Below are positions 29,700-57,289 of a stretch of 64,000 nt of DNA, one piece after another (position 1 is the stretch's first letter; the number at the start of each line of letters is the position of its first letter). The notes beneath the pieces were generated by a model. It made no database searches. It saw nothing but the letters and a program-made list of their open reading frames with translations, and was not told where the DNA came from. The stretch is from a virus. Location of the stretch: IMG/VR virus record IMGVR_UViG_3300028042_000003, positions 42,166 through 106,165 of that record; one strand, given 5' to 3'. The translations under genes were made by a program, and so were the position numbers.

Positions 29700-29911
29700 T
29701 GACCTACTCTCAAGAAGACCTCAGTAATTACCTAAGAGAAAAATACTTCAAAGATGACTACATGGGCTTCGGCCTGGAGTCTGGGTATTACACTCTTAGC
29801 GTAAACGGTAAAAAATATGAAATCAAAATAGAAACATTCCAGCAATACCAAGACCTCCAGGATTACGTAGAAACTGAATTCTTGAAAAAGTTCCCTGAAT
29901 TGTTTTTGTAA
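29699..29911 (+). CDS. Small PExxL-tailed protein (singleton)
   Basis: Ends KKFPELFL-stop and is followed by a promoter, not a coupled gene. Confidence 0.75.
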   Translation: MTYSQEDLSNYLREKYFKDDYMGFGLESGYYTLSVNGKKYEIKIETFQQYQDLQDYVETEFLKKFPELFL

Positions 29912-29954: not shown

Positions 29955-32639
29955 ATGAGATTATTTGAGGACAGCTGGACTGTCAAAGGCAAAACCTACA
30001 TCAGAGAATATTCTGAAGACCTAAAGAAATCAATCAAGCGTGAAACTCCCCACAAATCAGAATACTATGTTCAGGATACATTAGGAACCTATAAAGGTTT
30101 CCTTGATGGTAAGTCCCTTCGTAAAGTAGAAGGTTCAGCGTATAACATCAATGGAGCATATGGTGAAAAGTCAGCTAAATATGTAGCAATCCGAGATGAA
30201 TATTTCGGTAAAGAGCGATATAATAAAGCACCTAACACTTGGTATCTAGATATTGAAACTAAAGTGGGATATAACAGTACCGGATTCCCAAACGCAGAGG
30301 ATGCGGCAGAAGAGATATGTCTAATACAATTATGGGATACTAACACAAAAAAGGGTTATGTCATTGGTTTAGAAGAATGGTATAACAGAAAAGATTACAC
30401 CTACGACTTCGATTTGGAATATATCAAATGTACAGATGAACGAGACCTTATCGAAAAGTTTCTTGAGATGTTCAAAGAGCTAGATCCATTTATGATCTAC
30501 GCATGGAACGGTGATGGATTTGATTACCCTTACATTTTCAACAGACTAAAGAATCTTAAGATCAATACAAATAGACTAAGCAACTACGGTTCAGCTACAT
30601 TGAAAACTAAAAAACTAGATAATGGTCAGTTGGTTCATAGTGTTCAAAGTCAAGGACACCAGTTTATGGATATGATGGTTGTTTATAAGAAATTTGTTTA
30701 CTCTAATGTACCAAATTATTCCCTGGATACTATAGGTGAAATAGAAACTGGCGATAAAAAAATCAACCATGATAACTATTTGAAGTTTGATGATTTCCGT
30801 ATTGGTAAATACAAAATCCTTGGGAACGAATCCCAAGAACAAAAGAACAAGAAACTTCATAAAGCGGCCGTAGCTCTTGAAACACTAGATAAAGAAGACC
30901 CAAGAAGAACAAAGCTACAGACATATATTCAACAAAAAAGTTACAGTGACTTCGTTGATTATGGTGTAAGAGACTTTGTGCTACTAAAGGGCATACATGA
31001 TGCTCAGAACTTCACAATGCTTATGACCAACATGGCAGACCAGATGGGTTGTTTGTTGGGTGATGTACTTGGTACACTCAAAGCATGGGATTCTTATATC
31101 ACTAATTACATAAGTAAAGACAATCTAATTGCTCCACCAAAAGAGTCAAGTGATGAACAACCTAATGTAGTAGGTGGGTTCGTTAGAGCCTCAGAGATAG
31201 GTAAACATAGATGGATTCTTAGTTCGGATGTCAACTCTATGTATCCACTTTTAGGTATGGCTAGTTTCAATATGTCACCTGAGACATGGATACCATATGC
31301 AGAAAGACATCCTGATGTACAAATGATATCAGATATACTAAAAACTCAAGATGAAGATAAAATACTTGAAATTACCACAGAACAATGGGCTAAAATCAAA
31401 GCAATTGCACAAGAACATAATGTAGCCCTTGGAGTTGGTGGTGCAGTGTACAGAAAAGACACCCAGGGAGTAATTCCTCAGTTGGTAACAAAGATTTACG
31501 GTGGACGTAAACAAGCCAAAAAAGAACAATTTCAATGGGAACAAAAGTCAATTGACCTCAAAGAACAAGGTAAAGACCACAGCCAAGAAGATCATTTTGC
31601 CACGTTGAAAAATACAGAACAAATGACAGCTAAGATCCAAATAAACAGTTTGTATGGCGCCCTAGCGGCTAAGCATTTCAGTATGTACAACGAACAAATA
31701 GCACAATCTATTACTGGTTCAGGTAGATACTTTATCAAAATGTTAGCAAATGACGTAGAAGATAAATTACAATCAATGATAAAAAGTAAAGAACCATATA
31801 TCGTAGCGGGTGACACGGATTCAATTTACTTTCAAATTGCTCCATTTATTGACAAATATACACAAGGTAAGACAATTACCGAAAAGACAAAGTGGGCAGA
31901 TGCGTTCTACAAAAAGGTAATAGAACCAGTAGTTCAAAAAAGCATCCAAACACTAGCTGAGAATCTAAACGCTTTTGACCCTAGTTACATCGGGGCAGAG
32001 CGTGAGATTATAGCAGATGCTGGTATGTTTGTAGCTAAGAAAAAATATGCAGCAAGAGTGAGAGACCTAGAAGGTAAGATTTATCCAGAAAATGACCCTT
32101 ATATGAAAATACAAGGACTAGAAATCATCAAAGGTGGAACTGCCCCATTCTCAAAGAAGTATCTCAAAGAAGCTGTTCCAGTTATTCTAGATTCAGATGA
32201 AGATGGAATTAGAGAATGGTTCAATAATGTAAGATCTAAATTTCTCCAGGTTCCATTAGATGAGATATCAAATACAGCTGGAGTATCTAAAGTGTACAAT
32301 CCAGATTGGGGTAAAGTTATCAATGGACGTAAGGTATCTATCCCTTTCGGTTCTAGGATTTGTGTAACTACAAATAAATATCTAGAAGCCCAGGAACTAA
32401 CAGAGAACTACTCAAAAATAGAAGGCGGCGACAAGATAAAGGTGTTATTCCTAAGACAACCTAATGCATTATCATCTGAAGCATTCGCGTACAATGATGT
32501 TAGATTTGCTGAGATGTTCAAGAAAGATATAGACTATGACACCACGTTCCAGAAGTTTTTTGTATCTCCTTTACAAGGTATGCTAGATGCTATTGGAATT
32601 GACCTAAATAAAAATACAGAAGAAATTGATATTTGGTAA
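29955..32639 (+). CDS. gp43: Family B DNA polymerase (T4 gp43-like)
   Basis: YLDIET exonuclease I, AWNGDGFDYPY, SSDVNSMYP, KIQINSLYGAL, AGDTDS, KKKYA. Confidence 0.97.
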   Translation: MRLFEDSWTVKGKTYIREYSEDLKKSIKRETPHKSEYYVQDTLGTYKGFLDGKSLRKVEGSAYNINGAYGEKSAKYVAIRDEYFGKERYNKAPNTWYLDIETKVGYNSTGFPNAEDAAEEICLIQLWDTNTKKGYVIGLEEWYNRKDYTYDFDLEYIKCTDERDLIEKFLEMFKELDPFMIYAWNGDGFDYPYIFNRLKNLKINTNRLSNYGSATLKTKKLDNGQLVHSVQSQGHQFMDMMVVYKKFVYSNVPNYSLDTIGEIETGDKKINHDNYLKFDDFRIGKYKILGNESQEQKNKKLHKAAVALETLDKEDPRRTKLQTYIQQKSYSDFVDYGVRDFVLLKGIHDAQNFTMLMTNMADQMGCLLGDVLGTLKAWDSYITNYISKDNLIAPPKESSDEQPNVVGGFVRASEIGKHRWILSSDVNSMYPLLGMASFNMSPETWIPYAERHPDVQMISDILKTQDEDKILEITTEQWAKIKAIAQEHNVALGVGGAVYRKDTQGVIPQLVTKIYGGRKQAKKEQFQWEQKSIDLKEQGKDHSQEDHFATLKNTEQMTAKIQINSLYGALAAKHFSMYNEQIAQSITGSGRYFIKMLANDVEDKLQSMIKSKEPYIVAGDTDSIYFQIAPFIDKYTQGKTITEKTKWADAFYKKVIEPVVQKSIQTLAENLNAFDPSYIGAEREIIADAGMFVAKKKYAARVRDLEGKIYPENDPYMKIQGLEIIKGGTAPFSKKYLKEAVPVILDSDEDGIREWFNNVRSKFLQVPLDEISNTAGVSKVYNPDWGKVINGRKVSIPFGSRICVTTNKYLEAQELTENYSKIEGGDKIKVLFLRQPNALSSEAFAYNDVRFAEMFKKDIDYDTTFQKFFVSPLQGMLDAIGIDLNKNTEEIDIW

Positions 32640-33798: not shown

Positions 33799-34038
33799 AT
33801 GTCACAAACAGATATGTCTGGCATGTTTCGGGATTGTTTTCAACTTGTAGGAGCGGATATGATAGAAGGTGTTTATACGTTTTCTGTTTCAGGTGAAACT
33901 ATAGAATTTAATCAGATAGAAATTGATAAACTAAAAATCCAAGACCCTTTGTTCACATTCAAAGATAAAGATATAAAAAACCTCAGGATAACAACTAACA
34001 ATCTAATGAAAGAACAATATCCCGAGTATTTACTCTAA
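33799..34038 (+). CDS. Small PExxL-tailed protein (singleton)
   Basis: Ends EQYPEYLL-stop; converges on a minus-strand gene, so nothing downstream is coupled. Confidence 0.75.
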   Translation: MSQTDMSGMFRDCFQLVGADMIEGVYTFSVSGETIEFNQIEIDKLKIQDPLFTFKDKDIKNLRITTNNLMKEQYPEYLL

Positions 34039-40024: not shown

Positions 40025-41194
40025 TTATGGTTTTATAATTGATTCCGCGAATTCAACTTCACAACTCATTACAAAACTACTCGTATTGTCAACAGTTGAA
40101 ATAATTTCTGGCTCTACTTGTGAATCATCGTATGTGTCAAGTGGATTTGTTACAAATGCATCACGTACTTTATACCAAACAGTAGGTTCGCCAGTTTGAT
40201 AATCTTCTGTTTGAACAAGATATTCTTTGTAAGGACAATAATATATAGATGCTGAATCAGCTTCAGATCCTTGGTATCCCATAATAATTTGTCCTCTTGA
40301 TTCTGAGTAAGTTTCTGGAGTCATACCACCAGTTACTTTTGGTGGAATAGTATTTGGTTGTGGTAACTTACTAAAATCGTATTGGAAAACATCAATATCG
40401 CCCATAGTCAAAACATATCCGTTTTGTTTATCTGATGGTATTCTTCTTCCATCATCAAATGCTTCAGCACCTGAACTCATAGTAGAACCAATAGTTGAAC
40501 TTATAAAAGCCGCTATTCTAGGAGAAACTAAAATCCATGGTTGACCTGATTTACCAGTTGCTTTGAACAAGCCTTCTCTCAGTTCGCCAATAGCACCAAA
40601 TATATTAGTAGATTCTGCGTATGTGGTAATATCAACTGTTCCCTTCCGAGTGGAAATTTGAAGTAACCATTCAACGAAATCGAAGTTTATTTTATCTGCT
40701 ACTCTTCTCATACCAGTATTCAAGAAGAAAGAAGCCAGTGATTTGTTAGGTCCATTCCATACTTCCCCACCTGACTTTTGAAAGGCACTAAAGTTTTCTT
40801 TGAATTCAGTTCCAAAAAGTTGTTGAATATCTGTAGCTGCTTCCGTAGTCATTTTTAGCTCAACTGATCTAATTTTAGTGTCTACAAGTTTTCTAGTTAT
40901 TACTTCATCTTGTTCTGAGTTTGCATCTAAAGACGAAATTTGTGTTTCATCTCTTTGAACAAGCCCAAAAACAAACCCAGAAGGGCCTTGAAGTGGTTGG
41001 TTATACCCAATCATTGCTGGTAAACTTAGACTAATTGCTGTTCTTGCTATCTTTATGAGTGGAGCTGTTTGTGCGATATCTGTGGTGTTTGTGTCACCCT
41101 CTGAACCTGGTGGTGTTGTTCCACCTCCGATTCCATCAAATCCTGCTTCCGCTTCTTGTAGATCTACGATGTTTTCTGATAAAATTCTTTCCAT
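40025..41194 (-). CDS. Capsid-fold protein (T4 gp23/gp24 family), paralog B
   Basis: QPLQGPSGFVFGL resembles gp23 QPMxGPTGxxF; IIMGYQGSEADSASIYYCPY resembles gp23 GY.G.....AGxFYCPY. Confidence 0.75.
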   Translation of the reverse strand: MERILSENIVDLQEAEAGFDGIGGGTTPPGSEGDTNTTDIAQTAPLIKIARTAISLSLPAMIGYNQPLQGPSGFVFGLVQRDETQISSLDANSEQDEVITRKLVDTKIRSVELKMTTEAATDIQQLFGTEFKENFSAFQKSGGEVWNGPNKSLASFFLNTGMRRVADKINFDFVEWLLQISTRKGTVDITTYAESTNIFGAIGELREGLFKATGKSGQPWILVSPRIAAFISSTIGSTMSSGAEAFDDGRRIPSDKQNGYVLTMGDIDVFQYDFSKLPQPNTIPPKVTGGMTPETYSESRGQIIMGYQGSEADSASIYYCPYKEYLVQTEDYQTGEPTVWYKVRDAFVTNPLDTYDDSQVEPEIISTVDNTSSFVMSCEVEFAESIIKP

Positions 41195-41208: not shown

Positions 41209-42378
41209 TTATGGTTTGATTAGTTTGTCTGAGAATATAATATCAGCTTGCATAATGAATGAACTTTTATTGTTTCCTGGAATTGCTTGTGTGTTTGTTC
41301 CTAATTCCACCTCAGTGATACTAGAATCGTATGTGTCAAGTGGGTTTGTTTCCCATGTGTCTCGCACTTTATAAAATATTTTACTTTGACCATCGAAGTA
41401 GTCTTCACCACCTTGTACTATTGTTTCATTATATGGCATATAATAAACAGATGATGTGCCAGCGTTTCCTCTGTATCCCATATAAATTACACCTTTATCT
41501 TCAGAATCAGATGCTGTTCCGCCAGTTACATTGCCGTAAAAATCATGTTGAAAAACTTTTATGTCCCCTATTGTAGTGACATAACCATTTTCGACACCTT
41601 TTGGGTTTATTTTACCACTTGTGAATATATCGGCATCTGAGTGTTGAGCACCGTAATATGTGCTAAGGTAAGATCCAATTTTTGGAGAAACTAAGATCCA
41701 ATATTGACCTGATTTACCAGTCGCTTTGAACAAGCTTTCTCTTAGTTCAGCTATTACACCAATAATTTCTTCCATAGCCGACCAATTAGCTATAGTAGCT
41801 TTACCTTTTTTAGTTGCCACATCAGCAATCCAATCAGTAAAATCTTTATTGATTTTAGATACAATTCTTTGTCTAGCCATACTCAAGAAGAATCTTGCTA
41901 GTTCGCCATTAGGTCCATTCCATACTTCCCCACCCGTTTGGATAAAGTTGTCATAGTTTTCTGGAAAATCACTACCAAATAAGTTTTGGATGTCCTGGGC
42001 TGTTTCGTTTGTTATGTCTAAAATTACTTCTCGGACTTGAGTTTCTGCTAATTTTCTTATTACCACAACGTCATCAACATCAGTGGGTATTTGTGTTCTG
42101 TCTTTCTGTTGAAGACCAAAAACGTACCCAACACTAGAAACCATAGGCTGAACATATGAAATCATATACGGTAAGCTTACAGAAATAGCATTCTTAGTCA
42201 TGATAGTTTTAGGTGCAGTTTTCGCAATATCAGTGGTTACTGTTGCTTGTTGTGATGATGTTGTTGTAGGTGTAACATTTTGAGGTTGACCAGTTCTTGG
42301 GTTCAGAGATGGTTGTGCTATTTGGTCAAAACCTTCTGATTCTTGTATCTGGTGTTCAAAGAGTATTTTTTCGCTCAT
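41209..42378 (-). CDS. Capsid-fold protein (T4 gp23/gp24 family), paralog A
   Basis: VQPMVSSVGYVFGL; IYMGYRGNAGTSSVYYMPY; late promoter at 42400-42407. Confidence 0.75.
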   Translation of the reverse strand: MSEKILFEHQIQESEGFDQIAQPSLNPRTGQPQNVTPTTTSSQQATVTTDIAKTAPKTIMTKNAISVSLPYMISYVQPMVSSVGYVFGLQQKDRTQIPTDVDDVVVIRKLAETQVREVILDITNETAQDIQNLFGSDFPENYDNFIQTGGEVWNGPNGELARFFLSMARQRIVSKINKDFTDWIADVATKKGKATIANWSAMEEIIGVIAELRESLFKATGKSGQYWILVSPKIGSYLSTYYGAQHSDADIFTSGKINPKGVENGYVTTIGDIKVFQHDFYGNVTGGTASDSEDKGVIYMGYRGNAGTSSVYYMPYNETIVQGGEDYFDGQSKIFYKVRDTWETNPLDTYDSSITEVELGTNTQAIPGNNKSSFIMQADIIFSDKLIKP

Positions 42379-42990
42379 TGTATTCCTTATCTTTTTACTT
42401 ATTTATACTTCCTTTAATGTGTTTCAAAGGTATATTATGTTATAATAGTACATAAAAGGATAATAATGAAAGTTCAACTAAAACCAGAAATTTGTAGCGC
42501 ATGGGACGAATATGACTCAAGATGTGGTATGACCTCAGGTATTTGGTACGATATGAAAACTGTACCAAAAGATTTACCAGGTTTGGATGCTTTAGATAAC
42601 CCTGGAGTAGATGTTATTATCCAAAACCCAGAAACACCAGATGAAGCATGGTTTGAGTTATCAGATCTCATTGGTGAAGACGGCGAAATAAACCAAAAAA
42701 ATTATCCAGAATTATATATATAAAGGAACAAAATGAAAGTTCAACTAAAACCATTGATATGTGGAGATTGGCCACCTGGAGACACCAGGTATAATTTGAA
42801 ACCAGGTGTTCAGTATGATATGCACATAACAGAACCTGATTGGGATGGGGATAAGCACATTGCTGCGTTAGCAAATCCCAATAAAAATAGTTCAGAACAC
42901 GCCTATTTCAAACTAGAAGATCTTATAGGCCCAGGTGGATTGGAAGTATCTCAAAAAAATTATCCAGAATTATATCTATAAAGGAACAAG

Positions 42991-43440
42991 ATGATAAGAC
43001 CGACTCGTTTGAATTACAAATTTTTTAGATCATTACTATGGCACCAAAATAAACATCACAAGCATGGCGTTTTTGCGCATTCTTTGAAAGTAGTTTACTA
43101 CCTAATGACGGTAAATAGATATGATTTGGTACCTGCTGGTTTTTTACATGATATTGGTAAGCCATTTGTAGCTTACCAAAAAGACGAAGACAAAGCTTCA
43201 GGTGATTATAGCTTTACCAACCATGAGGAGATCAGTTACCGCCTGATAAAAAACTTCGCTAGTGACAAAACCTGCGAAATGGTAAGATATCACTACCACA
43301 TTAGAGCAATGCAAAAAGCAAAAGAACGTAATCAAATTGGCAAATACAACCGTTACAAAAGACAATACGATAAACTGTCAACAGAGACAAAAGCGGATCT
43401 TAGAGTATTCCTAGCAGCCGATGATTGTGGTAAATTATGA
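42991..43440 (+). CDS. HD-domain phosphohydrolase
   Basis: HHKHGVFAHSLKV...GFLHDIGKP...HEEISY...RYH...ADD. Confidence 0.8.
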   Translation: MIRPTRLNYKFFRSLLWHQNKHHKHGVFAHSLKVVYYLMTVNRYDLVPAGFLHDIGKPFVAYQKDEDKASGDYSFTNHEEISYRLIKNFASDKTCEMVRYHYHIRAMQKAKERNQIGKYNRYKRQYDKLSTETKADLRVFLAADDCGKL

Positions 43441-45032
43441 TTGCCAAACCAGAATTTGATATCAACAAAATCAATGCTGGTGATACCGTCAAATGGAAAG
43501 ACTTAGGTGGAACGATATGGAAATCTCAGGTTATTGAAGTCAATTTGAAGCTTGGTACTGTCACTGTTGATTATGTCAACAGTTCAATAATTCTGTTAGC
43601 TTATAGAATACTTGACTGGTACACTAAAGAATCTCATCCGGAGTATTACTTATGATAATAGGAAGAGAAAGAATAGAAATAAGAAAAGTAAGAATCAAAT
43701 CACTGAAGCAAATCATAATGGACTCCAAAGGATTGTTACATGACACCCAGGTTAGACAATCAACTATAGACCAGAGTTCATTAGTTTTTGTGCCAGAAAT
43801 GGAACATCTATGTGGAACTGTTATTGATACCAATAGCTTATTTACTATTGGTAGCATCAAAGCTTGGAAAATAGATGAGTGGATGATAGCAGAAGAAATC
43901 ACCCAAGAAGATTATCCGGAGTATTACCTATGATAAAAGCAGACCTAATACACAAACATTGGTATCACGTCAGGTTGGGTATAGGACCTGAGGTAGTACC
44001 ACTACAACACGCCAAAGCATACGGGCCACCTAATACTGCTTGGTTTATTGGACCTAAAAAAAGTGTTCATATAAGCAGAATAGTAAAACATCTCTCACCA
44101 GATGATTACCCAGAATATTATCTATAAAGGAAAATTATGTCAAGAAATCTTATACTAGAAAGAAATGTAGGAACTTATTACTCCGTCAATGATGAGCTTT
44201 ATATTTTAGAAACATTTTCAGATGACCCAAGCACAGTGGTAGGAAGTTTGAGCTATCCAGGTCGGTTATTCAAAATGCATACCGTTTACCCAATAGTGCT
44301 TAGGGTTAGCAAAAATGGAATTACTGCTAGTGGGGATACCGCGTTTGAAGAGAATAAAGAAACTCACCCAGAACATTACCTCTAGGTTTAATGTTCGTGT
44401 AAGGTATATTATGTTATAATAGTATAACAAGAAACAGAAGGAGAACATATGAAACAAGGAATAATAAATCAACAGAATTTAGTATTTATTGAGTCAGCTT
44501 GGTATAATACGGTAGGTTTTGTGTTAGCCCAAGATGCTATTACCAGAGAATACAAATGCTACACCCACAAATTAGGTGGTGACCGTAATGACGATTACAC
44601 AGAAGATCAAGATATCAATAAGATACTTGCACATGGGAGTTACTTTCCACTTGAAGCGGCGAAAGCAATTTTTGCTTATGACACCAATAAGGATTTCATT
44701 TACGAAAATCCAGAATTATATCTATAAAGGAAAATTATGAAACTAAGACTAAAATACAACAAAATACTAGACTCATACTACATTGAGGAAAACTATGGAT
44801 TCTTCTTTTGGTCGCATGTTCAAGGACCATCGTTTACAATCGAGCCAAGACCAAATAGCGATAAAAAGTTAGTGTTCCCAGATCTACCAAGACCGTCAAT
44901 GCCAACTTTTGATGGTGGGTGGTACTTCAAAAACTATGACATAGCTTTACAAGGAATGCGAGATATGCTAACAGAATGTGAAAAAGCCAACGCAAAAGCT
45001 AAAGCCCACAAAATTACCAAAATGGAGACAAA

Positions 45033-45527
45033 ATGCTAACAAATTTACTAAGAAATGTACCAGGCTCAATCACTTGGATGGTTGTAGTATCAATCTTGAT
45101 GTGGTTCTTTACTTTTCAACTGGGTATCGTTTTAGTTTTGGTCATAATGACCTTCCTTGTTTGGGGTGGAGCAATAGAAGGCCTTCACTTAAATGACGTA
45201 AATTATGGTCATTTTATGCTTCTCGTTTCACTGTCGGTAATTGGCGGTTGGTCTTATTACAAAATTGATACATTCGTAGAATATAACAAAATAGTATCTG
45301 TTCAAAAAGGAACAGATTATAATGTCACGTATGACATAAACTCAGATAACATTACCATAAGACTAGCTACTAAACATAAAATAGTAAAATCTATAACAGT
45401 AAGCAAAGACAACCTAGAAAGAATAAAAGACATCACAGATGGTAAGTTCACCCTAGAAAGAAGAAAGTACAGTACATGGTATTCCCAAAACCTCGGGTTC
45501 GAAACTACATTCAAAATGGATAAATAA
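45033..45527 (+). CDS. Membrane protein with three predicted TM segments
   Basis: Hydrophobic N-terminal ~80 aa. Confidence 0.6.
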   Translation: MLTNLLRNVPGSITWMVVVSILMWFFTFQLGIVLVLVIMTFLVWGGAIEGLHLNDVNYGHFMLLVSLSVIGGWSYYKIDTFVEYNKIVSVQKGTDYNVTYDINSDNITIRLATKHKIVKSITVSKDNLERIKDITDGKFTLERRKYSTWYSQNLGFETTFKMDK

Positions 45528-48482
45528 TGAACAATTACACCCAAGAAAAAACTAGACTTTTATTGGTAAATCAAATATCAATAAAAACATTAGCAGATCA
45601 CATCCAAAGTGGTGGATATCTAACAAGTCCATTTATGGAGCTTTTCAAAGATTATCTAAATGAGGTGTCTCCAGTGATGTTCCCTTTAGCTGTTCCACTT
45701 GGAATTATAGAAATCTTAGTGTTGAAATATCGTCTAAAAAATGTAAGACAAAAATACCCAGAAAGGTTCCTATGAAAATATTTGGCATAATAAAAAGAAC
45801 ACCTAAGTTCCTAAAAGACACCATCGGTGCATTCACAAAAGAGTGCATAAAGGACTTGTCAAAAGAAGAATACCTAGAGGTCAAAGAAGCTTTTGTAATA
45901 ACACAAGACCAATCACCTAGAGAACAAATAAGAGAAAGTTACAACTTCGGTTGGTTTGGTGAAAATTTAGCTACTGGAGTTATGCAGCTAATGATGTGGT
46001 TTTATGGGTACAAAGCTTGGAGATTTGAGAAAAAATACCCAGAGGAATTACTATGAAAATTGACATTCACTCTACTGACCACCAAAAGTTCAGAGAAATA
46101 GTTTTTGGTGGGTATACTATAAAAACTTACGAAGAAGCTAAGAATTTTGTCAAAGAACTCGAAGGAGACTCAGATGTACAAGAAAATGGATTGTATAATG
46201 CCCTAAGAAACCCAAAAGATAAAAAGATACTAACTTTTTTTCTTTTTATCTTTCTGAAACTAATGATTATCTTTTTAGTATATAAAATAAATAAATTCAG
46301 AAAAAAATACCCAGAGGAGTTATTATGAGAATAAATTTTATAGACCGTGAAAATCCAGAAATGAGTGATTTTTTCATTAGGACAGAAAACATCGCCCAGG
46401 ACATTCCAACAGAATCAAAAACTGGTCTTCTCGAAGTTTGGAAAAGTGAGAAGCTCCAGGAGTACAAAGAAAGAAACATCAAAATACGCGCTTTGGTTGC
46501 TCAAAATAAAGAAACCCTAAAAGAAATAAAAGAAGGGTTCAATGAATTCGTCAAGGAAGAATACCCGGAGATGTTCCTATGAACCTAAAAGCCCTAGAAA
46601 CTCAAATTGTTGATGTATTATCATCTACGCCAACCAATACAACAGGTAAAGCAATTGGTTCGATGTCGACTGAAGAGATAATCCAAGAGTTCAGAGTAGC
46701 TTGTGAGCAAAATCTTGATGTAACTAGGGAATTTATTCTAGTTTATGTGAATCTAAAAAACCCAGAAGCCCAAGAAATAATCCAAGTGGAGTACCCGGAG
46801 TATTTCCTATAACCTTCGTGTAAGGTTAGGTGTGTTATAATAAGTAAAAAAAAGGAGCACCAGTGAAAATAAAAGTAAATGACAGAATCAAAATAAAAGA
46901 TGGTGTTTACTATGTTGAAGATAAGGTTGGTATTGTCAATCATGTGTACAAAGACGAGATACGATGTGATTTTCTTTACACAAAAGGTGACACCCAAAAC
47001 CTAAGAGTAGATCGCAACGATATAGAAGAACATCTAAATAAAGAAACCCATCCAGAGTATTTCCTATGATAGAAGCTATTCAAGGAAACATTTACAGAGT
47101 CAAACTAAGAGAAAATGAACCAGAGGAAAGCTGGATGTTGTGTACAAAAACAGTCAAAACAAAGTATTATTTTGACATACTCAAAACAAATTGTGGTTGG
47201 GAAACTGTAAAGAAAATTTGGTACACAAGAAAAAACTTCAATGAAATTCATGATGTGATTGAAGTTTTCAATCCAACAGATTACCCAGAGTATTTTCTAT
47301 GAGACAAGTAAAAGTAGGAAACATCTATAAAAACCGCTGCGGTCAAGTAGTGAAAATAACCAAAACGAGTGATGAGTTAGCAGACGTGGATGTAATAAAA
47401 AGTAGTAAAAATTTAGACATGGAGCCATATAATTTTTGGATGGCTTCTGGTTCAAGGTGTGATTCAAGCTTATTAGAAATACCACTACACAAACAATCGG
47501 ATGATGATGTGCTAATAGACCAAGTACTAACAAAAGAAGATTATCCAGAATATTACTTATAAGGACTAAAATGGACGAATACAAAAAGAAAGAATTCAAA
47601 AGGTGGACCCAAGCTAAAGTCAACGATGTGGTTGTGTACAATTATGACCCAGAAGAAGACAACACAAACTACATCGGATTGATAAAAAATATCTCCCAAG
47701 AGGGTGTGTACATTGATGATCTTTATTGTATAGAAAATAAAGACGAAAATATAGAAGAACAAATTCTAATAAACGAAACAAATGTAGATATATTTATTTT
47801 GGTAAAGGTATTGTATAACCACAAACCTTTACTAGAAACCATCCAAGAAGATTACCCGGAGTTTTTCCTATGAGACCAGGCGAAGTGTACAGAAACAGAA
47901 GAGGAGACATCGTCCAAATTATGGCAGTAGATAACGATCTTGCGCATCTTGAAGTTATAAAATTCAAGAACCCCAATCAACCTGGACCAAAAAGGTATAA
48001 TTTTTGGTCAAAATCTGGGTCGAGATCATATGGAAGATATAATCACCCAAACGACATCATTGAGCGCCACCAAAAACAAGAGGATGTAATATTGATTATC
48101 TTATCAAAAGAAGATCATCCGGAGTATTACTTATGATAGATAACTTCAAAAAATGGCAAGACCTAAAAGTAGGGGACGTCGTTCTTTACCGATACGACCC
48201 AAAGGATTCAGATGTTTTGTTTATTGCTTGCATCACTGAAAAAACAGAAGAAAAGGTAGAGTTTTATGATATTCATTCGTTTTCTGAATATCTAGAGCCA
48301 GAACCAGAGGTGTTTGTAAACGCTGTGAATGAAGATCATTTTATTCTAGAAAGGGTACTCATGCAAGCACCTTCTATTTTATCGGTGGTAAAAACAAGAT
48401 TTCCGGAGTTATTCCTCTAGGTTTAATGTTCGTGTAAGGTATATTATGTTATAATAGTACATAACAAATAAAAAGGATACAA

Positions 48483-49901
48483 ATGAAAACACAAGAAACT
48501 AAAAATTTACCAATTGATAGAGGACCGTACGAGGAAACTTTTGTCAATATGATGAGTTCACCTAAATATGTACAACAACACTTTTATGCGTTCGTAATTG
48601 CTAAAATGCAAGTATCGATAAACAGAAGTGTTCCAACAGCAGGTGCTGGGTTTTATGATAATAACTATCAATTAGTTATAAATCCAGACTTTTTCAACCC
48701 ACTGCCACTTGAGCAAAGAATGGGTATTCTAATCCACGAAGTAGATCATATTATTTTACAACACCTTGGAAGAAAAGGTGAAAGAGATCATAAATTATTC
48801 AACGTGGCTTGTGATATTGCATTGAACCAAATGATACCAAAAGATTGGTTACCAGATGGTGCTTTATATCCAGAGACTTTCAAATTACCAGATGGTAATT
48901 TTTGGCCAAAAGATCTAACAGCTGAACAGTATTACCAATTAGCTAAAGACGAGAAAGATAAGCAAGAGAAAGAAAAAGACGACCAAGACACAGAAGAAAA
49001 ATGTGATAACTGTGGTGGTTCTGGAGAAGAGCCACAAGACGGTGACCAAGAAGGCGAAGAAGGCGAAGGTGAAGGCCAAGGCGAAGGTGAAGAAAAAGAA
49101 GGTAAAGAACCTTGTAAAGAATGTCAAGGTACAGGTGCTAAACCTGGAACTGGATTCCAACCATCAAATGGTAACCCTAACCTTACTGGACAAGAAGAAA
49201 TCACTATTGATTCACATGATATGTGGGATAAAATGTCAGACGAAGACCAAGAAATGGCTAAAGAGATGATGTCAAAAACATTAGAACAAGCTATGGAAAA
49301 GTCAAGAGGTAACGCTCCAAGTAACATTGAAATGATTATGGAATTATGGAGAAAGAAAGCTAAACTTAGTTGGAAACGTATTTTGAAAAAGTACCTTTCA
49401 AGTAAAAAGGGTCAACGTGTAGCAACAATCAAGAAGAGAAACAGACGTATTAGAACCCTTGGAGTCAAAGGTTCAAAAACAGCGTATGATACTCCAGAAG
49501 TAGTTGTTGGTCTTGATACCAGTGGTTCAATGAGCAACGAAGAAATTGCAGAAGCTTTAGTTGAGATCAACGAAGTATGTAAAATTTCAAACAGTAACTT
49601 GAAATTGGTTCAAATTGACACTACCATAAAAGGTCTAGAAGAGTATGACCCTAAAAAGAAAAACTTCAAAAGACGTGGTTGTGGTGGTACTTACATGGGC
49701 GCAATGGCTAAATTCTTGAAAGATGAAAAGATAAAGTATGATGTGCTAGTAATGATCTCAGATATGTACATTGAAGATGTATCAACAGATGAGAACTGGA
49801 AAGGTCTCAAAAAACCAACACTATGGTTGAACACAAGTGGCGCCGATGTTGAATGGGATGGTCTAAAAAACCACAAAATTTATAACATTAGTGATGCGTA
49901 A
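48483..49901 (+). CDS. VWA-domain protein with N-terminal metallopeptidase-like HExxH domain (MoxR partner)
   Basis: ILIHEVDHII...FNVACDIALNQ; VGLDTSGSMS MIDAS; GCGGT; SDMY. Confidence 0.85.
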   Translation: MKTQETKNLPIDRGPYEETFVNMMSSPKYVQQHFYAFVIAKMQVSINRSVPTAGAGFYDNNYQLVINPDFFNPLPLEQRMGILIHEVDHIILQHLGRKGERDHKLFNVACDIALNQMIPKDWLPDGALYPETFKLPDGNFWPKDLTAEQYYQLAKDEKDKQEKEKDDQDTEEKCDNCGGSGEEPQDGDQEGEEGEGEGQGEGEEKEGKEPCKECQGTGAKPGTGFQPSNGNPNLTGQEEITIDSHDMWDKMSDEDQEMAKEMMSKTLEQAMEKSRGNAPSNIEMIMELWRKKAKLSWKRILKKYLSSKKGQRVATIKKRNRRIRTLGVKGSKTAYDTPEVVVGLDTSGSMSNEEIAEALVEINEVCKISNSNLKLVQIDTTIKGLEEYDPKKKNFKRRGCGGTYMGAMAKFLKDEKIKYDVLVMISDMYIEDVSTDENWKGLKKPTLWLNTSGADVEWDGLKNHKIYNISDA

Positions 49902-52900
49902 TGAGAATCCAAGATAACCAGGTATACAAAACGATTGGTGGCAATATGGTAAAGGTCACCAAATCGGACAAACCAGGGGACTCTTTATGGCCGTTTAGTG
50001 GTACCATCAATGATGTATTCATTACCTGGAGCATTATGGGATGTGCAAGTGCTCAGATAAACTCTCCCAGCAGTACCCAAGAAGCTTATCCCCATAACCA
50101 TAATTTAGTAGAACACCTAAAACAAGAAGAATACCCGGAGTATTACTTATGATTGAAAATGCGCTAAATAGTCAGCTAAAACCTGGACTTTGGAAGATAG
50201 AGTGGGACGGAACTGTTGAACACTTCGAGCATATTGTTGAGTGTCGTTTGATATCAAACAGAAAAAGACTAAAAACACTGAAACAAGTAGCCGGTAAGCT
50301 AAATGAAGAATATTACAATAACTGGTCGTTATCAAGAAACATGGAGGCCCAAGCAACATATATTGGACCAATAGAAAATTACCCGGAGTATTACTTATGA
50401 GATTCACAAAAGATGATATTGGTACATTGGTAAAGGTCTATGATAATCTCCAGCATGAAACATACTATCCAATAATTGAAGGCTTTGATGATAGCGAGTT
50501 ACCAATGAACTTGTCAGTAAATGGTGAAGATTGGTTATCGTTCAACATAAATGGAAGATGGGGTGAATTTGAAATCACAAAAATCTACCCAAAAGAAAAA
50601 TATCCGGAGTATTACTTATGAGAAAAGAAAGACCAGAAAAATTTACAAAAGATGATATCAATTTAGTAGTTCAAGTAGAAGTTTACGACAACGACGAATT
50701 GAATCACTCTATAACGGCTGAGATAGTTGAGTTCAATATTGACAATGGTGAGAATCACCCATTACGGGTCAAAGATATCAATTCAGGTTCTGGGTTTATA
50801 CTAAAAGATGATGGTACATGGAAAAATGAATCAAGCAATTTATTCATTGAGATCACAAAAATATATCCAGAAGACAATTACCCGGAGTATTACTTATGAG
50901 ACAAAAACCAAAAAAAGGAGACTACATCAAAACACTAAATGGCATAGCTAAAGTTTATGAGGTTCATACCGCCAACGGAGCAAATCCCGTTTATGCGTAT
51001 GCAGTTAGATTCCTGGAGTTTCAAGACACCAGTGTAATACCTGCGTCTGCTATTCTTGAAGTTCTCAACTTAGATGATTACCCGGAGTTGGTGTTATGAG
51101 AATGTTCAAACCAGATGAAGTATATCTACTAAAGAATAACAAGATTGCTACCGTTGTAAATGTATTTTCTTATTCGGTAGACCTATTGATAGATGGAAAG
51201 ATTGTGATTTTTAGTAGTTACGGTGAAAATAAGATGGAAAATTACCGAAACCCAAACCTTGGGTTTGATTATGGTATTGTTGGCACAATCAACCTGGAAG
51301 AATTCCCGGAGTACCAATTATGATTGCTAATATTGGATGGATACTAGAATTCAAAAATGAGTTATGTGAAGTTATTGATATAGATTATTTCGAAACCGAT
51401 GAATATCTTATTAGAATAATCTCAGACAAAAGAGAATTTAGAGTAGGTGGATCTGAACTTAGACCACCTGACCCAATAAAATACCCGGAGACAAGTTTAT
51501 GACAGAAGAATTTATCGCTACATCAAATCACAGCAAAATACCAGCACCTATTTTGCTAAAGTTTTCTATTATTGGTATTGATGTTTATTCAAACCTGAAC
51601 ACCAAAGGAACAGTAGCTAATTTTTTTAGAAAAAAGGCTACATCAAAAGGTGAATACCCAGATGGTAATCATATTGGTTACATTCAATACGAAAACGTCA
51701 ATGACCTATACGAGATCTTTGCGGCAAGATACCCAGAGGAGACACTATGAATCCACCCATCCAAACTGACATCATAAGAGCAAATAGTCAGACCATAACA
51801 AGCATATCCCAACTTTATGTTGGTGTTTTGCTTTTAGAAAATAAAATGATCGCCGAGATAACAAAAATATCCAAAGATGGAATTGCTTTTGTGGTAGTCA
51901 ATGACGATTCAACAACCCCTTGGAGTCGAGGTCAAAACGGAACAATCAACACAGAACAATTCCAAGAAACTCTAAAGGCAGGTGACCATACGATGGTTAT
52001 AATAGGCAAAAAAGAAGATTACCCAGAGTTTTACCTATAAGGACAAAAATGAAAAAGAAAAAACTAAGATATGAAAGATACGCTAAGTTTATGGAACCAG
52101 AAGAATACAGAAGAATCAAACCTGGAGACATTATCCTTTATAGAGCTGATTTTATTCAATTATCCAAAGCTAAAGTTGCTTCGGTATGGGGTGGATGGGT
52201 TCTTATCAAAACAAACCATTGGCAAAAGCGTGTATATTTTAGCCAAATAGCAAAAGTTGTAACAAGACAATACCCAGAGGAATTACTATGAAACCAGAAC
52301 ACTACAGAGAGCATGACCTAAGACCTGATTCGGTTTCAATGAAAATTTTTAGGAACTTAGACTCATTAGATTGTATCGTAGCAGGTGGATACTGCTTATC
52401 TAAAGTTCAACGATTATACGGAAACCTTGCTTCTGAATATAATGATATTGATGTTTTTGTTCTAACGCAAGAAAGCTACAATGAAGTTCATAAAGTTCTT
52501 TCTAAGCTTGGTGTTTTAGATTATGATACCATATTAGCTGCTTCTTTTACTGTACAAGAGATAGGCCAAATGCGCCAAAGTGTTCAACTCATAAAACCAT
52601 TTAGGGATGTTTCTAGCTATGATGAGCTAATAGAAGACTTTGACTTGGATAATAGCAAATACTGGACTTATGCACCATGGAACAAAATTTACACAAAACA
52701 AGCAAACACTAGACTTCATGTTGTCACTCCAAATAAAAAAGTAAAATGGAATTATCACTTCTTAGAAAGAATGTTGAAATACCAAAACGAGAAGAAACTC
52801 CAACTGGATTTTGACCAGTATCCTCAGTTACTTGGTCTAATAAAGAGCACCAATAAAGAAAGATACAATATGGGTCCAACAGAATACAACCCAAAAGATC

Positions 52901-53229
52901 AAACAAAATACCACCTGGATAATGTATTATTAGAAATGATCAAAGAGGTTCTCAAAACAAGAAATCAAATCAGCAAGAAAATAGATAAAGAAACCCAAAT
53001 GGGAAAAGCTGGTTATATGCATCTCCAAAGAATTATGGAGCGATCACATGATATGCTAAGTTTATCTAGTGTTTCTATTTTCTTGTTTGATTACTGGGCC
53101 CAAGAGGAATGTCATACTGCTAAAGGGAATGATCTGGTTGTGGCACTTGGAGCAAAACTATCAAGCAAAAAATATTATCTAGCAAATCTAGGTAGGGTAA
53201 AAAGAACATACCCTGAATTATTATTATAA
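49901..53229 (+). other. Array 3: eleven consecutive ORFs ending PExxL-stop (49901, 50149, 50397, 50618, 50896, 51096, 51320, 51499, 51747, 52049, 52288)
   Basis: C-termini YPEYYL x4, YPELVL, FPEYQL, YPETSL, YPEETL, YPEFYL, YPEELL, YPELLL. Confidence 0.9.
52288..53229 (+). CDS. Nucleotidyltransferase-superfamily protein (CCA/poly(A)-polymerase head-like) carrying the PExxL tail
   Basis: IVAGGYCL...EYNDIDVFV (GG..DxD), VQLIK, IEDFDLDNSK. Confidence 0.65.
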   Translation: MKPEHYREHDLRPDSVSMKIFRNLDSLDCIVAGGYCLSKVQRLYGNLASEYNDIDVFVLTQESYNEVHKVLSKLGVLDYDTILAASFTVQEIGQMRQSVQLIKPFRDVSSYDELIEDFDLDNSKYWTYAPWNKIYTKQANTRLHVVTPNKKVKWNYHFLERMLKYQNEKKLQLDFDQYPQLLGLIKSTNKERYNMGPTEYNPKDQTKYHLDNVLLEMIKEVLKTRNQISKKIDKETQMGKAGYMHLQRIMERSHDMLSLSSVSIFLFDYWAQEECHTAKGNDLVVALGAKLSSKKYYLANLGRVKRTYPELLL

Positions 53230-53299
53230 AAAGAATTTCAATAAAAGGCTAGGTTTAATGTTCGTGTAAGGTACTTTATGTTATAATAGTACATAACAA

Positions 53300-53333
53300 G
53301 AAGAACTAGTAAGAGTTACTAGACAGACTTCAT
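53300..53333 (+). other. Conserved 5'-UTR stem-loop, copy 2
   Basis: GAAG-AA-CTAGTAA-GAG-TTACTAG-ACAGA-CTTC-AT upstream of the AAA ATPase RBS. Confidence 0.6.
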
Positions 53334-53350: not shown

Positions 53351-54466
53351 ATGAAAATTTCAAAAATCAAAGTAGCTATGGATATAGCACAAGCAGCAAA
53401 TGATAACGTACACATGATTGGACCACATGGTATTGGTAAAACTGAATACGTGAAAGCGTGGGCAAAAGAAAAAGGTTATCACCTTGAGGTATTACAACTT
53501 CCAATTCTTGAGACATCAGATCTTATTGGTATGCCTGATATTACTGAAACAGAATTTGGAAAAGTTACTGTGTTCGCAAAGCCTGAATGGTTAGTTCGTA
53601 TGGACCAAGCAAACAAAGCTGGTAAGCACTGTGTAGTATTTATGGATGAACTTGGTCGTTCGAGTATGGAAATTAGACAAGCGTCTCTTCAAATTGTACT
53701 TGAGAAAAAAGTTTCAGAACATGCACTTCCAGAGTTAGATGGTATCCAGACATTATGTGTCGTTGCCGATAACCCAAGTGATACTTATGATACAGCTGAC
53801 TTTGATGCAGCACTTGAAGATAGATTCCAAACTTACCCAGATATCACAGCAGATATCAAAGACTGGTTGAAGTATGCCAGAGAAGTTGGTGTTGAAGCAG
53901 TAGTAACTGACTTCTTAGCAGAATACCCAGAAAACTTACACTTTGTTGATGAGTCAGATGGTGAAAAGGGTTCAAGCCCAAGAGCGTGGAAGAAACTCTC
54001 AGACGGTATGCAAAAATGTACAGATAAAGGGTTCATGAGAACACTTATCGTATCAAAAGTTGGTAAAACAGTAGGTTCAAGTTTCAATCACTTTTTCAAC
54101 AACTACATTGATATTGTAAAACCTGAAGATGTACTTGAGAATATCGGTAAAGCGTCTATCGCAACTGAGAAAGACCAAGAGAAAGCGGCTAAAAAACTTT
54201 CTAAGTTGACTAAAGGTATCGAGGTTATCTCAGCACAAGAGTTAGCACAGAAAATTATCGCTAATATCAAAGAAAACAAAGAAGGTTTCACAAACGAGAC
54301 AATGATTGTTTACTTGGCTTCTATAAACCTTGAGACTGCAGCAGCAATCCTAAAAGGTTGGAAAGATGGGGACAAAGAAGAAACTGAGTTTTACTACGGT
54401 GGATTCATAAAAGGACAGCCTAACAAATGGTTGATTCGTAAAATTACTTCTAAAGTAACACAGTAA
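53351..54466 (+). CDS. MoxR-like AAA+ ATPase
   Basis: GPHGIGKT Walker A, ETSDLIGMP, VFMDELGRS Walker B, ADNP, FDAALEDRF, SPRAW. Confidence 0.88.
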   Translation: MKISKIKVAMDIAQAANDNVHMIGPHGIGKTEYVKAWAKEKGYHLEVLQLPILETSDLIGMPDITETEFGKVTVFAKPEWLVRMDQANKAGKHCVVFMDELGRSSMEIRQASLQIVLEKKVSEHALPELDGIQTLCVVADNPSDTYDTADFDAALEDRFQTYPDITADIKDWLKYAREVGVEAVVTDFLAEYPENLHFVDESDGEKGSSPRAWKKLSDGMQKCTDKGFMRTLIVSKVGKTVGSSFNHFFNNYIDIVKPEDVLENIGKASIATEKDQEKAAKKLSKLTKGIEVISAQELAQKIIANIKENKEGFTNETMIVYLASINLETAAAILKGWKDGDKEETEFYYGGFIKGQPNKWLIRKITSKVTQ

Positions 54467-56469
54467 TGAAGTGGGGTATAAACCCACCGAGGTTCGCAGG
54501 TAGTCAAGTTTACTACCGGGACTTGGTGGTTTTTGCTGTGCAAGAAAATTCAGTTATAGGAGCAGAAAAGTTTGACCTTGACGGTTTTTCAAAACCAATG
54601 TCGACTTTAGATATTGAATTCAACCCTCTTTTGACAACAGAATTCAAAGAGATTCAACACCCAGTTGAAAACATCACAGATAATATCGTTCGGACTACTT
54701 GGTTGTTCAACAGTAAAGAAGAAGCATTTATTCAAAAGGTAGTCTTATTGGCTCATATCAAAGAGTACTTTTACAAAAAACAAATAGAAGATAAGAAATA
54801 CTTCGATACCAAAATACCTAAAGATATCAACACAAAGCTAGAAAAATTACAAGAAAAATACCCAGAGGTTATGTTATGATACACGCAAAAGTCAATACAG
54901 CACTTAGGTTATCAGAAATTTTAGGGTTGAATGTACGATATAATTCAGCTGAAAACCTTTATTTTATACAAAAACTAGATGAGTGTATAATTGTTCCAGC
55001 TGATAAACCTCAAGTGGGTGTTCTTAGATACCTAAAAGAACACCACCCAGAGGTAACACTATGATTCCAGAATCATTGAGCCCAAGAGACTATCAAATTG
55101 GTAAATGTTATCTAGCTAAATGGAAAGATAACAGAAAAGATCTTTGGATTTTTGCACCCATTGAAAAACATGACGTTTATATTACTTGCAAAGACATAAT
55201 AATTCTAAAGGGTGATACACCAATGGATGAATATGATATTTATTATGATACCAATAACGCATTTGAAATTGTAAAAGAAGTATCAAAAGAAACCCATCCG
55301 GAGTATTTCCTATGAAATTTGTCCTAATACAGCCAAAGGAATGGTTCGAGAAAAATGCATACGAAGACGAAGACGGAGATTATTGGGGATCAGAAAAACA
55401 GTATAAAGCATATAAAAAAGAACTAAATAAAGACTCCCATGATTCAGAAAAGTTACATAAATTATCTACCTACTTTTGCTTAGACAATACCCTTTTGGAC
55501 GACTGGTATGGTATTGTTGATATTACCAATGAGCAAAAGCAGTATTACGAATGGGCAGTAAAGAAAAAGCTCCCAAAATCTAAATACCCGGAGTATTACC
55601 TATGAAAAAACACGATATTATCAAACTATCAAGCCCAACTTTTGAGGGTGTTGGTATCGTCATTAGAGCCTCTGGCACTGCAATTAGTTGTCGAACATTA
55701 CACCAAATAACCGAACGAAGACCTACCGATAGATTTGTCTTCTCAACGGATGACGTAAATATCAAGTTTGAAATCCTACCTAAAAAAGATTACCCGGAGT
55801 ACCACCTATGAAAAAACACGAAGCACCAGAAAACCAACAGCATCTTTTCGATACTGAACTTTTCGCATACAGACGGAAGTCACCTACTTATGCTAAATTC
55901 ACCATAGAAGATATACGCGGCTTACCTGAAAATGGTTATGGTTCTGTTGTTACTCTTGTTGTATCAAAAAACGGTAACCGAAAGAAAACGCTTTATACTG
56001 TTCAGTTTGCTTGTGAGCTTACTGATTGGGGTTATAAGTTATTCAGTACCAAAAATAAGTGGAGCACCAGTTTAGGTGAACACTTCCAAAAAATGGAAGC
56101 TTCAAAAGAATACACCAATGATGCAAGAACCACCTCATCGTATAAAAAAGAACTACAAGAAAACAAAGACAGATTCCCGGAGTACTGGTTATGAGCATGA
56201 TAGACGTGACAGACATGAAATCACTACAAGATGGCTTACCGACGATAAAGGAAGGTGATGTGTTATCCATAATGTGGAATGATGGAAACCAAGAAATAAT
56301 CGCAGAAGTGATGGTATCATCCACAACTGGAATAAGAACAAAAGACCTAAGAGTTCTACAAGGTAAAAAAAGCTACAGTAAAATTGGAGCTAGAGGTTTC
56401 TATGAGAATCTTGATACACACTATTATAGATCAATCGATATAAAAAAATACCCGGAGTACATATTATGA
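54466..56469 (+). other. Array 4: seven consecutive ORFs ending PExxL-stop (54466, 54876, 55061, 55312, 55602, 55808, 56191)
   Basis: C-termini YPEVML, HPEVTL, HPEYFL, YPEYYL, YPEYHL, FPEYWL, YPEYIL. Confidence 0.9.
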
Positions 56470-57055: not shown

Positions 57056-57289
57056 ATGGCACTGCACAAAACAAACCAACCCAAAACCACTGAAATCGTT
57101 GTAACTTTTATTAGTAATGACGAAATGAAGAGATATGGGTGGGATGAGTACAGACATGATTTCCCTGAAATTGTCAATAGGAGACATTTCATTTATAGAA
57201 AGAATGGCACATTCCTTCCGGCGTACATGGTAAAGAAAGAATACACTCTAGAAGAAGGTCAGGAGAAGTTCCCTGAACTATTTCTGTAG
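57056..57289 (+). CDS. Small PExxL-tailed protein (singleton)
   Basis: Ends EKFPELFL-stop, followed by a promoter. Confidence 0.75.
   Translation: MALHKTNQPKTTEIVVTFISNDEMKRYGWDEYRHDFPEIVNRRHFIYRKNGTFLPAYMVKKEYTLEEGQEKFPELFL

Follow-up and report, generated by a model that had tools for sequence, protein, structure and literature searches.

In translationally coupled junctions, the stop codon of one gene overlaps the start codon of the next as ATGA or TAATG, and the Shine-Dalgarno (SD) sequence of the downstream gene lies within the upstream open reading frame (ORF), an arrangement known to bias the choice of 3'-terminal codons. The internal proteins of phage T4 bear a capsid targeting sequence, which occupies the N-terminus and is cleaved off by the prohead protease at L/I-x-E. 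The hyperplastic regions of T4-type phages carry PeSLs, intergenic promoter/stem-loop cassettes (PMC2839356, PMC4122927), and the pair of a MoxR protein and a von Willebrand factor A (VWA)-metallopeptidase is known in T4-like jumbo phages, in which a role in virion assembly has been proposed for it (PMC7824862). Here we analysed a 64,000-nt stretch of viral DNA (hereafter the window), corresponding to bases 42166-106165 of a single-contig virus record (IMGVR_UViG_3300028042_000003; 125,228 bp, ~35% GC), in which many genes end with the same short peptide, P-E-x-x-L with a free carboxyl end (the tag). An initial reading of this DNA, referred to below as the original prediction, held that the tag is dual-coded, serving as the SD of the next gene where genes are coupled and surviving as protein where they are not. 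The evidence presented below makes it highly probable that the peptide is selected in its own right, on at least 49 unrelated protein bodies, and that the SD of the next gene has been layered on its silent positions wherever genes overlap.

Scanning stop-to-stop ORFs with the regular expression P-E-x-x-[LIMFV]-stop recovered exactly the 49 tags counted in the original prediction for the window, all of them ending in PE..[L/I] on the plus strand and none on the minus strand. The whole genome yielded 59 matches, 57 of which are real tags forming the last six codons of a gene, and these genes account for about a quarter of the proteins. The consensus is [Y/H/F]-P-E-x-(Y/F/L)-L-COOH, with Y or F at position -2 in 41 of the 57. 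From the amino-acid composition, only 0.08 such gene ends would be expected, and [YHF]PE..L occurred 52 times at C-termini versus once internally. Gene ends are bimodal, as 57 match all of P, E and L and four match two of the three, none of the latter being tag-like; there are therefore no decaying tags.

We regarded a tag as coupled if its stop codon overlaps, as ATGA or TAATG, the start of a downstream ORF of at least 40 codons. By this definition 39 tags are coupled in the genome (38 by ATGA and one by TAATG) and 35 in the window, and their downstream ORFs are mostly tagged themselves. The others fall into two classes. In the own-ribosome-binding-site (RBS) class (nine in the genome, six in the window), the downstream start is 8-9 nt away and has its own AAGGA. 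In the nothing-close class (nine in the genome, eight in the window), a promoter or a convergent gene comes next; across the genome, seven of these nine are followed by a promoter-like element and two lie at convergent gene ends. 'Uncoupled' here means that the SD lies outside the tag, and the own-RBS class may still couple by reinitiation 8-9 nt downstream. The tag at 21924 was counted as uncoupled because its TAATG opens an ORF of just three codons, after which a promoter follows.

Codon choice depended strongly on coupling. The original prediction described coupled tags as usually written CCG-GAG followed by YTA-TGA, which supplies both an SD and the overlapping ATG, and proposed a Fisher exact test of the association, which the association passes. 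Within the window, GAG encodes Glu in 33 of 35 coupled versus 5 of 14 uncoupled tags (P = 4e-5), CCG encodes Pro in 24/35 versus 2/14 (P = 1e-3), and an SD core (GGAG, GAGG, AAGG or AGGA) lies inside the tag in 32/35 versus 2/14 (P = 4e-7). The corresponding figures for the whole genome are 36/39 versus 5/18 for GAG (P = 1.4e-6), 25/39 versus 2/18 for CCG (P = 2e-4) and 34/39 versus 2/18 for the SD core (P = 4e-8). Relative to the codon background of the genome (GAA 78% and GAG 22%; CCA 62%, CCT 27% and CCG 4.6%), coupled tags deviate greatly (binomial test, P = 1e-20 for GAG and 3e-24 for CCG) whereas uncoupled tags do not (P = 0.57 and 0.20), in agreement with the earlier view that the coupling signal is added when needed. 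The Leu codon is YTA in all coupled tags because the ATGA overlap demands it; all six Leu codons, and once an Ile codon, are found in uncoupled tags. In coupled tags, GGAG is spaced 8 nt from the next start, inside the upstream ORF. Nine of the 14 coupled tags without CCG rebuild a core (GAG-G.. or GAA-AGG) via E, V or R at position -3, as do 0 of 16 uncoupled tags (P = 1.4e-4). Therefore, the SD sometimes shapes the peptide as well, albeit only at a tolerant position.

Selection on the peptide was assessed by Nei-Gojobori counts over 54 disjoint homologous pairs with a mean body identity of 62%. In gene bodies, the proportions of synonymous (pS) and non-synonymous (pN) differences were 0.43 and 0.23 (pN/pS 0.54); the tagged proteins are fast-evolving. 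The P, E and L codons, by comparison, displayed 38 synonymous versus a single non-synonymous (L/I) difference, giving a pN/pS of 0.009, as anticipated from the claim that selection acts on the peptide. Position -3 was body-like (0.58), and positions -2 (0.26) and -6 (0.19) were intermediate. When both members of a pair are coupled, the Glu codon shows 0 synonymous changes in 37 pairs (~5 expected; pS 0) and the Pro codon a pS of 0.16. In the nine coupled/uncoupled pairs, the Pro and Glu codons differ in most cases and the peptide is unchanged. Synonymous freezing confined to coupled pairs is the signature of two superposed constraints.

The original prediction would also have been in difficulty if homologs of uncoupled genes had freely lost P, E or L, and they have not. 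None of 238 ORFs with bodies homologous to a tagged protein lacks the tag, and the orthologs of the uncoupled gene 48133-48420 (81-84% identity) all end in FPELFL. In the strongest test, the largest tagged protein, an uncoupled 313-aa Gad2-like protein (52288-53229, plus strand; ..TYPELLL, CCT GAA), has 26 homologs of 25-42% identity in an exhaustive HMMER search of 1.84 billion representatives, most of them matched through the N-terminal 200 residues only. Nineteen of the 26 end in PE..L, four in near variants (PALLL, PWVML, PELLF and PELIF) and three in unrelated sequences; nearly all, down to 25% identity, have an ending of the YPE-x-L-L type. Taken together, the substitution counts and the homologs show that P, E and the terminal L are maintained at the amino-acid level by purifying selection. 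One candidate for tag loss, ORF 968-1264 of a close relative (L036) compared with 46053-46328 of the window, was rejected. A 1-nt deletion in an A7 run just 5' of the tag leaves the tag DNA intact and makes the frameshifted ORF run nine codons into the next gene, and this is an assembly error or a very recent event rather than an evolutionary loss.

Other genomes replicate the association. Scanning for exact matches to the most frequent junction gave three stretches from two viral contigs, 30 metagenome stretches and one locus of a metagenome-assembled genome (MAG), and stretches retrieved in this way carry arrays of tagged ORFs. A Balneolaceae MAG (L035) matched the junction pattern but has no tagged ORF, and was set aside as a chance DNA match. 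With every tag matching the search pattern excluded from the counts, relatives use GAG in 91/97 coupled versus 22/47 uncoupled tags (P = 5e-10), and CCG in 67/97 versus 6/47 (P = 1e-10). With the last eight residues removed, BLAST groups the 236 non-redundant tagged proteins into 151 clusters, and the codon-coupling association persists with one data point per cluster and class (P = 3e-13). Coupling status is mixed within nine clusters, and the uncoupled member of seven of these lost the SD core and kept P, E and L. Three distant lineages, G001, L050 (20% GC) and L055, were reached via protein homologs or the uncoupled-type pattern, not via CCGGAG, and together gave 11/16 versus 2/22 for CCG (P = 3e-4) and 12/16 versus 5/22 for GAG (P = 0.003). 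Selection at the amino-acid and RNA levels is separable here because the motif occurs with and without an overlapping start, both within the genome and within single families.

Variant tags extend this history. We sampled the contigs around homologs of the VWA-metallopeptidase of the genome, which span 82% to 24% identity. At 43% identity (L048 and L052), ..[YFH]-P-Q/H-Y-F-I ends up to 11 of 28 ORFs, and nearly every tagged gene is followed by its own promoter; at 33% (L049), ..P-H-L-F-L ends 16 of 49 ORFs; at 32-35% (L050 and G001), the tags are of the P-E type. In the PQ/PH sister lineages, the MoxR protein and the VWA-metallopeptidase are 31-45% identical to those of the genome, and about a third of small ORFs bear variant tags. 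CAR and CAY codons are unable to form an SD, and the tag therefore exists without the coupling signal. Two ATGA-coupled tags of L049 read P-G (CCAGGA) and P-D (CCGGAT), giving AGGA or GGA, and this lineage meets the need for an SD by changing residue -4. One distant phage has 14 of 18 tags uncoupled. Tags are absent from a sipho-like phage whose VWA protein is 24% identical and which has no MoxR gene nearby. Position -4 is lineage-specific (E, Q or H), and SD use is therefore an add-on of the P-E lineages. The tag is old, being present in at least six divergent T4-like phage lineages with GC contents of 20-36%.

These observations amount to a simple scheme. If the next gene starts on the ATG of ATGA, the Leu codon is confined to YTA, and the free third positions of Pro and Glu are fixed as CCG-GAG to place GGAG 8 nt before the start; failing CCG-GAG, the tolerant residue -3 is picked as E, V or R to give GAGG or AAGG. 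If an own AAGGA RBS, a promoter or a convergent gene comes next, the codons relax to AT-rich synonyms with the peptide unchanged. We infer that a single shared partner reads the peptide as a docking tag or degron, and that the embedded SD drives reinitiation.

Several points weigh against this scheme. Reinitiation is suggested by sequence statistics, and a search of sequencing runs for this DNA found no RNA run. The tag SD lies 3-4 nt farther upstream than the usual RBS of the genome, AAGGA at 5-6 nt before ATG, which is also used by untagged ATGA-coupled genes without a PExxL end. The promoter-followed tags 46795-46812 and 48403-48420 keep CCG-GAG with nothing coupled to them, and at 48403 CCGGAG is kept at four orthologous loci (L036-L039; two with the same protein). 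We regard this retention as unexplained rather than contradictory because the orthologs are merely 81-84% identical in protein; it may reflect too little divergence or another RNA-level constraint. Finally, tags are phylogenetically non-independent, a problem that the cluster-level and disjoint-pair analyses lessen but do not remove.

Tagged genes occur in runs, which we call arrays, and as singletons outside them, all on the plus strand. Array 1 (20020-22768) has 11 tags, ten of them ATGA-coupled, and the tag at 21924 is the one followed by a promoter. Array 2 (42466-48420), with 21 tags, mixes coupled, own-RBS and promoter-followed tags and includes the uncoupled CCGGAG tags at 46795 and 48403. 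Array 3 (49895-53229; 11 tags) ends with the 313-aa Gad2-like protein, and array 4 (54466-56469; seven tags) is ATGA-coupled throughout. In array 2, the gene 43437-43655 ends in ..SHPEYYL (43635-43655), written CCG GAG TAT TAC TTA TGA, with GGAG 8 nt 5' of the ATG at 43652 and an ATGA overlap. The gene thus coupled, 43652-43933, ends in ..DYPEYYL (43913-43933; CCG GAG .. CTA TGA) and is itself coupled to the start at 43930. The same ..DYPEYYL ends gene 43930-44127 (44107-44127), which is uncoupled, is written CCA GAA .. CTA TAA and is followed by AAGGA and the ATG at 44137. CCA GAA is likewise used in the tags of gene 42466-42723 (..NYPELYI, 42703-42723; .. ATA TAA, with the next gene at 42733 and its own AAGGA after the stop codon), its tandem paralog 42733-42981 (..NYPELYL, 42961-42981; .. 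CTA TAA, then AAGGA and the ATG at 42991) and gene 44449-44727 (..ENPELYL, 44707-44727; uncoupled, .. CTA TAA, then AAGGA and the ATG at 44737), and in the uncoupled, operon-terminal tag of gene 44137-44385 (..THPEHYL, 44365-44385; .. CTC TAG). The uncoupled singletons are ..KFPELFL at 29891-29911 (CCT GAA .. TTG TAA), followed by a promoter and then the DNA polymerase gene, ..QYPEYLL at 34018-34038 (CCC GAG .. CTC TAA), at a convergent gene end, and ..KFPELFL at 57269-57289 (CCT GAA .. CTG TAG), followed by a promoter. The CCAGAA sites listed in the original prediction were located at 42706, 42964, 44110, 44368, 44710 and 47545, within 2 nt of the positions given there, and the CCTGAA sites at 29894, 53212 and 57272; the uncoupled endings that it named, CTC-TAG, TTG-TAA and CTG-TAG, are those at 44365-44385, 29891-29911 and 57269-57289. 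Its statement that uncoupled tags mostly use other codons, with two keeping CCGGAG (46795 and 48403), holds for these two but omits three further tags, at 21924, 34038 and 52040, which keep GAG with CCA or CCC. Array 2 also contains an untagged gene for an HD-domain protein (42991-43440, ending in ..CGKL), whose gene overlaps the following one as ATGA, with no SD core found at the junction. Coupling therefore does not require the tag.

A conserved promoter-like element stands after operon-terminal tags and before each new gene run. It consists of GTAAGGT, 6 nt, TGTTATAAT and then AGTA, and TGTTATAAT is a putative extended -10. One copy, read directly from the sequence, lies at 44386-44420 (plus strand), after the tag 44365-44385; other copies are at 21925-21965, 46813-46850, 48421-48460 and 53255-53300, after the tags at 21924, 46812, 48420 and 53229. 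Related lineages have (C/T)TTTAAG, 11 nt and TATAAT directly after the stop codon of the tag, a spacing more reminiscent of a -30 activator box than of a -35 element.

Among the alternatives to a selected peptide, the one that survives best, improbable as it is, holds that the tag is a DNA-level recombination joint, i.e., a boundary repeat of mobile cassettes in the role of a PeSL, with the peptide as a passenger. Where homology between the window and its close relatives (L036, L039, L021 and L027) breaks off or resumes, it does so on tag junctions. Gene 46053-46328, which sits between identical KKYPEELL tags (46039-46056 and 46311-46328), is missing from L039; in L036, an additional 70-aa gene has tags on either side, and 47066-47302 has a tag-bounded, non-homologous replacement; and six genes lying between tags 21195 and 22768 are missing from L021. 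Comparison of these relatives shows the tag junction to be a site of gene insertion, deletion and replacement, and the conserved junction explains the shuffling of ORFan arrays between relatives. Selection for DNA identity, however, would not leave 38 synonymous versus one non-synonymous difference at P, E and L, and the peptide is kept with different codons across genomes of 20-36% GC and in homologs of 25-40% identity. As the synonymous/non-synonymous pattern at P, E and L cannot arise from selection on the DNA, we read recombination as something that follows from the repeat.

Still less probable is that the tagged genes are one expanded paralog family, derived from a single small ancestor, with the tail as a structural part of its fold. 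The tagged genes of the genome do include five paralog pairs, and several tagged proteins share similar MRxK..GD.. barrel-like N-termini. The AlphaFold2 model of one tagged family places a small beta-barrel between an N-terminal and a C-terminal helix, and after the latter the tag forms a confident short helical turn (predicted local distance difference test score 87); Foldseek with the model (family 47571-47873) returned weak Sm/SH3-like barrel rows only (E about 0.1), and look-alikes in a protein atlas all scored <0.9 and were uninformative. Against common descent, the 54 genome tags left under the label of the genome after pooled deduplication correspond to 49 BLAST-unrelated body clusters. 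The carriers range from 60 to 313 aa and include SH3/Sm-like barrels, small membrane proteins (predicted for 46053-46328) and the Gad2-like protein, whose homologs were found via the N-terminal domain. Pfam and PHROGs searches with 20 tagged proteins gave nothing significant and no common family. The carriers are thus ORFans apart from the Gad2-family hit. Precomputed Pfam annotation lists Gad2 (PF26128) for 52288-53229 and its homologs, marked weak for one, and our own hmmscan against Pfam did not return PF26128. Gad2 is a phage anti-Gabija protein (bioRxiv 10.1101/2023.05.01.538930), and the putative membership would suit arrays with a part in early host takeover or in anti-defence.

The idea that the peptide is purely an RBS footprint, namely what the next initiation region spells in the frame that the ATGA overlap imposes on the upstream gene, can be given next to no credence and is already largely refuted: 38 of the 57 tags overlap the next start by ATGA, 34 of the 39 coupled tags hold an SD core and one 21-nt junction recurs many times, but 18 tags without an overlapping start, two of them at convergent gene ends, keep the peptide with background codons (the argument on which the original prediction chiefly relied) and spell Leu in all six ways, the preferred AAGGA at 5-6 nt, which untagged coupled genes use, would spell K-D/E and not P-E, the PQ and PH variants of the sister lineages cannot encode an SD, and a distant phage has most of its tags uncoupled.

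With this artefact removed, the tag, as a peptide selected in its own right, becomes a legitimate target for a search for its reader. It is possible, though doubtful, that the tag serves as an address, with the phage MoxR AAA+ ATPase and VWA-metallopeptidase, or a host ring protease, as its reader, and we tentatively name the phage pair as the best candidate. Both proteins are untagged and encoded on the plus strand. The VWA-metallopeptidase (48483-49901; DUF2201_N + DUF2201) lies inside the tag arrays, and its HExxH motif and DxSxS metal ion-dependent adhesion site (MIDAS) are invariant in 74 homologs. Its partner, a MoxR-type AAA+ ATPase (AAA_5; 53351-54466), has array 4 directly after it. 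The two genes occur within or beside arrays in every tag-bearing lineage sampled, which is co-inheritance as much as co-occurrence because the sampled lineages are mutually related. Two tests gave this choice of reader no backing. When the 87-aa tagged protein 47299-47562 was co-folded with the VWA-metallopeptidase, the latter supplied as a 74-row alignment together with Zn and Mg, the median score was 0.00, which speaks neither for nor against binding. A comparison of tag type (PE versus PQ/PH) with alignment columns of the VWA-metallopeptidase and MoxR revealed no convincing covariation, the columns being conservative L/V, F/Y and I/L exchanges only, and fewer than for a phylogenetic split. 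If the reader is of this kind, one control, be it timed destruction, activation or delivery, would extend to about a quarter of the proteome, for the most part small proteins with early or anti-defence roles. The tag system would then be ancient in a broad T4-like clade, and the P-E lineages would have exploited the Glu codon secondarily to chain genes.

The remainder of the genome encodes a family-B DNA polymerase besides the MoxR-type ATPase and the VWA-metallopeptidase. The major-capsid candidates are a pair of neighbouring minus-strand genes of 389 aa each (40025-41194 and 41209-42378), both ending in ..IKP; Pfam Gp23 matches 40025-41194, the one of the two that was scanned, and the pair presumably encodes the major capsid and vertex proteins. 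From the Gp23-matching candidate, the family-B polymerase, MoxR and the VWA-metallopeptidase, the phage is distantly T4-like. A blastn search of a phage collection with the capsid genes gave no match, and the search for related loci by capsid protein found none. DNA polymerase and Gp23 searches in G001 were likewise negative, which, in a 37%-complete fragment, says nothing on absence. The polymerase itself ends in ..EEIDIW (32622-32639) and a 49%-identical relative in ..EELDEW (L046, 2317-2334), an acidic-Trp ending that is a second C-terminal motif, distinct from the tag. As for the host, four contigs (C132, C199, C307 and C334) of a Campylobacterales MAG (G002) bear runs of PE-type tags, which hints at Campylobacterota as the host group, or at phage contigs merely binned with that MAG.

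The tag resembles a C-terminal docking tail of AAA+ partners, that of HslU (EDLSRFIL), which inserts into HslV (PMC4106860). Both have an acidic pair, then hydrophobic-x-x-aromatic-hydrophobic-Leu, and a free carboxyl end; HslU of a Campylobacterales MAG with related phage contigs ends in EDLSRYIL, and a tag reads EDYPEYYL. Positions -2 and -1 (L) of the tag fit the HslU-tail/HbYX-type motif, and -3 is mostly Y, L or F yet as free as the bodies. The critical HslU residue, -3, is however the least constrained tag position (pN/pS 0.58), and the invariant Pro and Glu of the tag have no counterpart in HslU. We keep this likeness as a lead only, because the position critical in HslU is the least constrained in the tag.

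Compared with the capsid targeting sequence of T4, the tag is likewise a short constant peptide, shared by many small and variable proteins in a T4-like phage, but it sits at the extreme C-terminus, as the single internal occurrence attests, and on a quarter of the proteome. With PeSLs it shares the arrangement of short repeats flanking ORFan genes in variable T4-like regions, with the breakpoints of gene gain, loss and replacement coinciding with the repeat. PeSLs, though, are intergenic regulatory DNA, whereas the tag is coding and selected as amino acids. Most tag junctions have no promoter, terminator or any intergenic DNA, and what recurs is a set of six terminal codons together with the following gene start, in place of an intergenic early promoter and stem-loop terminator.

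The coupled tags agree with translationally coupled junctions, as they have the 4-nt stop/start overlap, an SD-like core 8 nt upstream, within the 5-10 nt typical of such junctions and inside the last codons of the upstream ORF, and synonymous positions constrained only where the overlap exists. They differ in that the SD has been fitted into an independently conserved motif on ~57 unrelated proteins, and in that the ordinary AAGGA of the genome at 5-6 nt is not the RBS used. The tag thus offers an unusually clean natural case of two codes in the same 18 nt, and the E/Q/H variation at -4 suggests that which form of the motif is retained in a lineage can be guided by its need for an SD. Tag motif strings had no match in the literature searched. 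Terminal codons that double as an SD are a known kind of constraint, found here in a new form, superimposed on a C-terminal tag that is widespread, deeply conserved and apparently undescribed.

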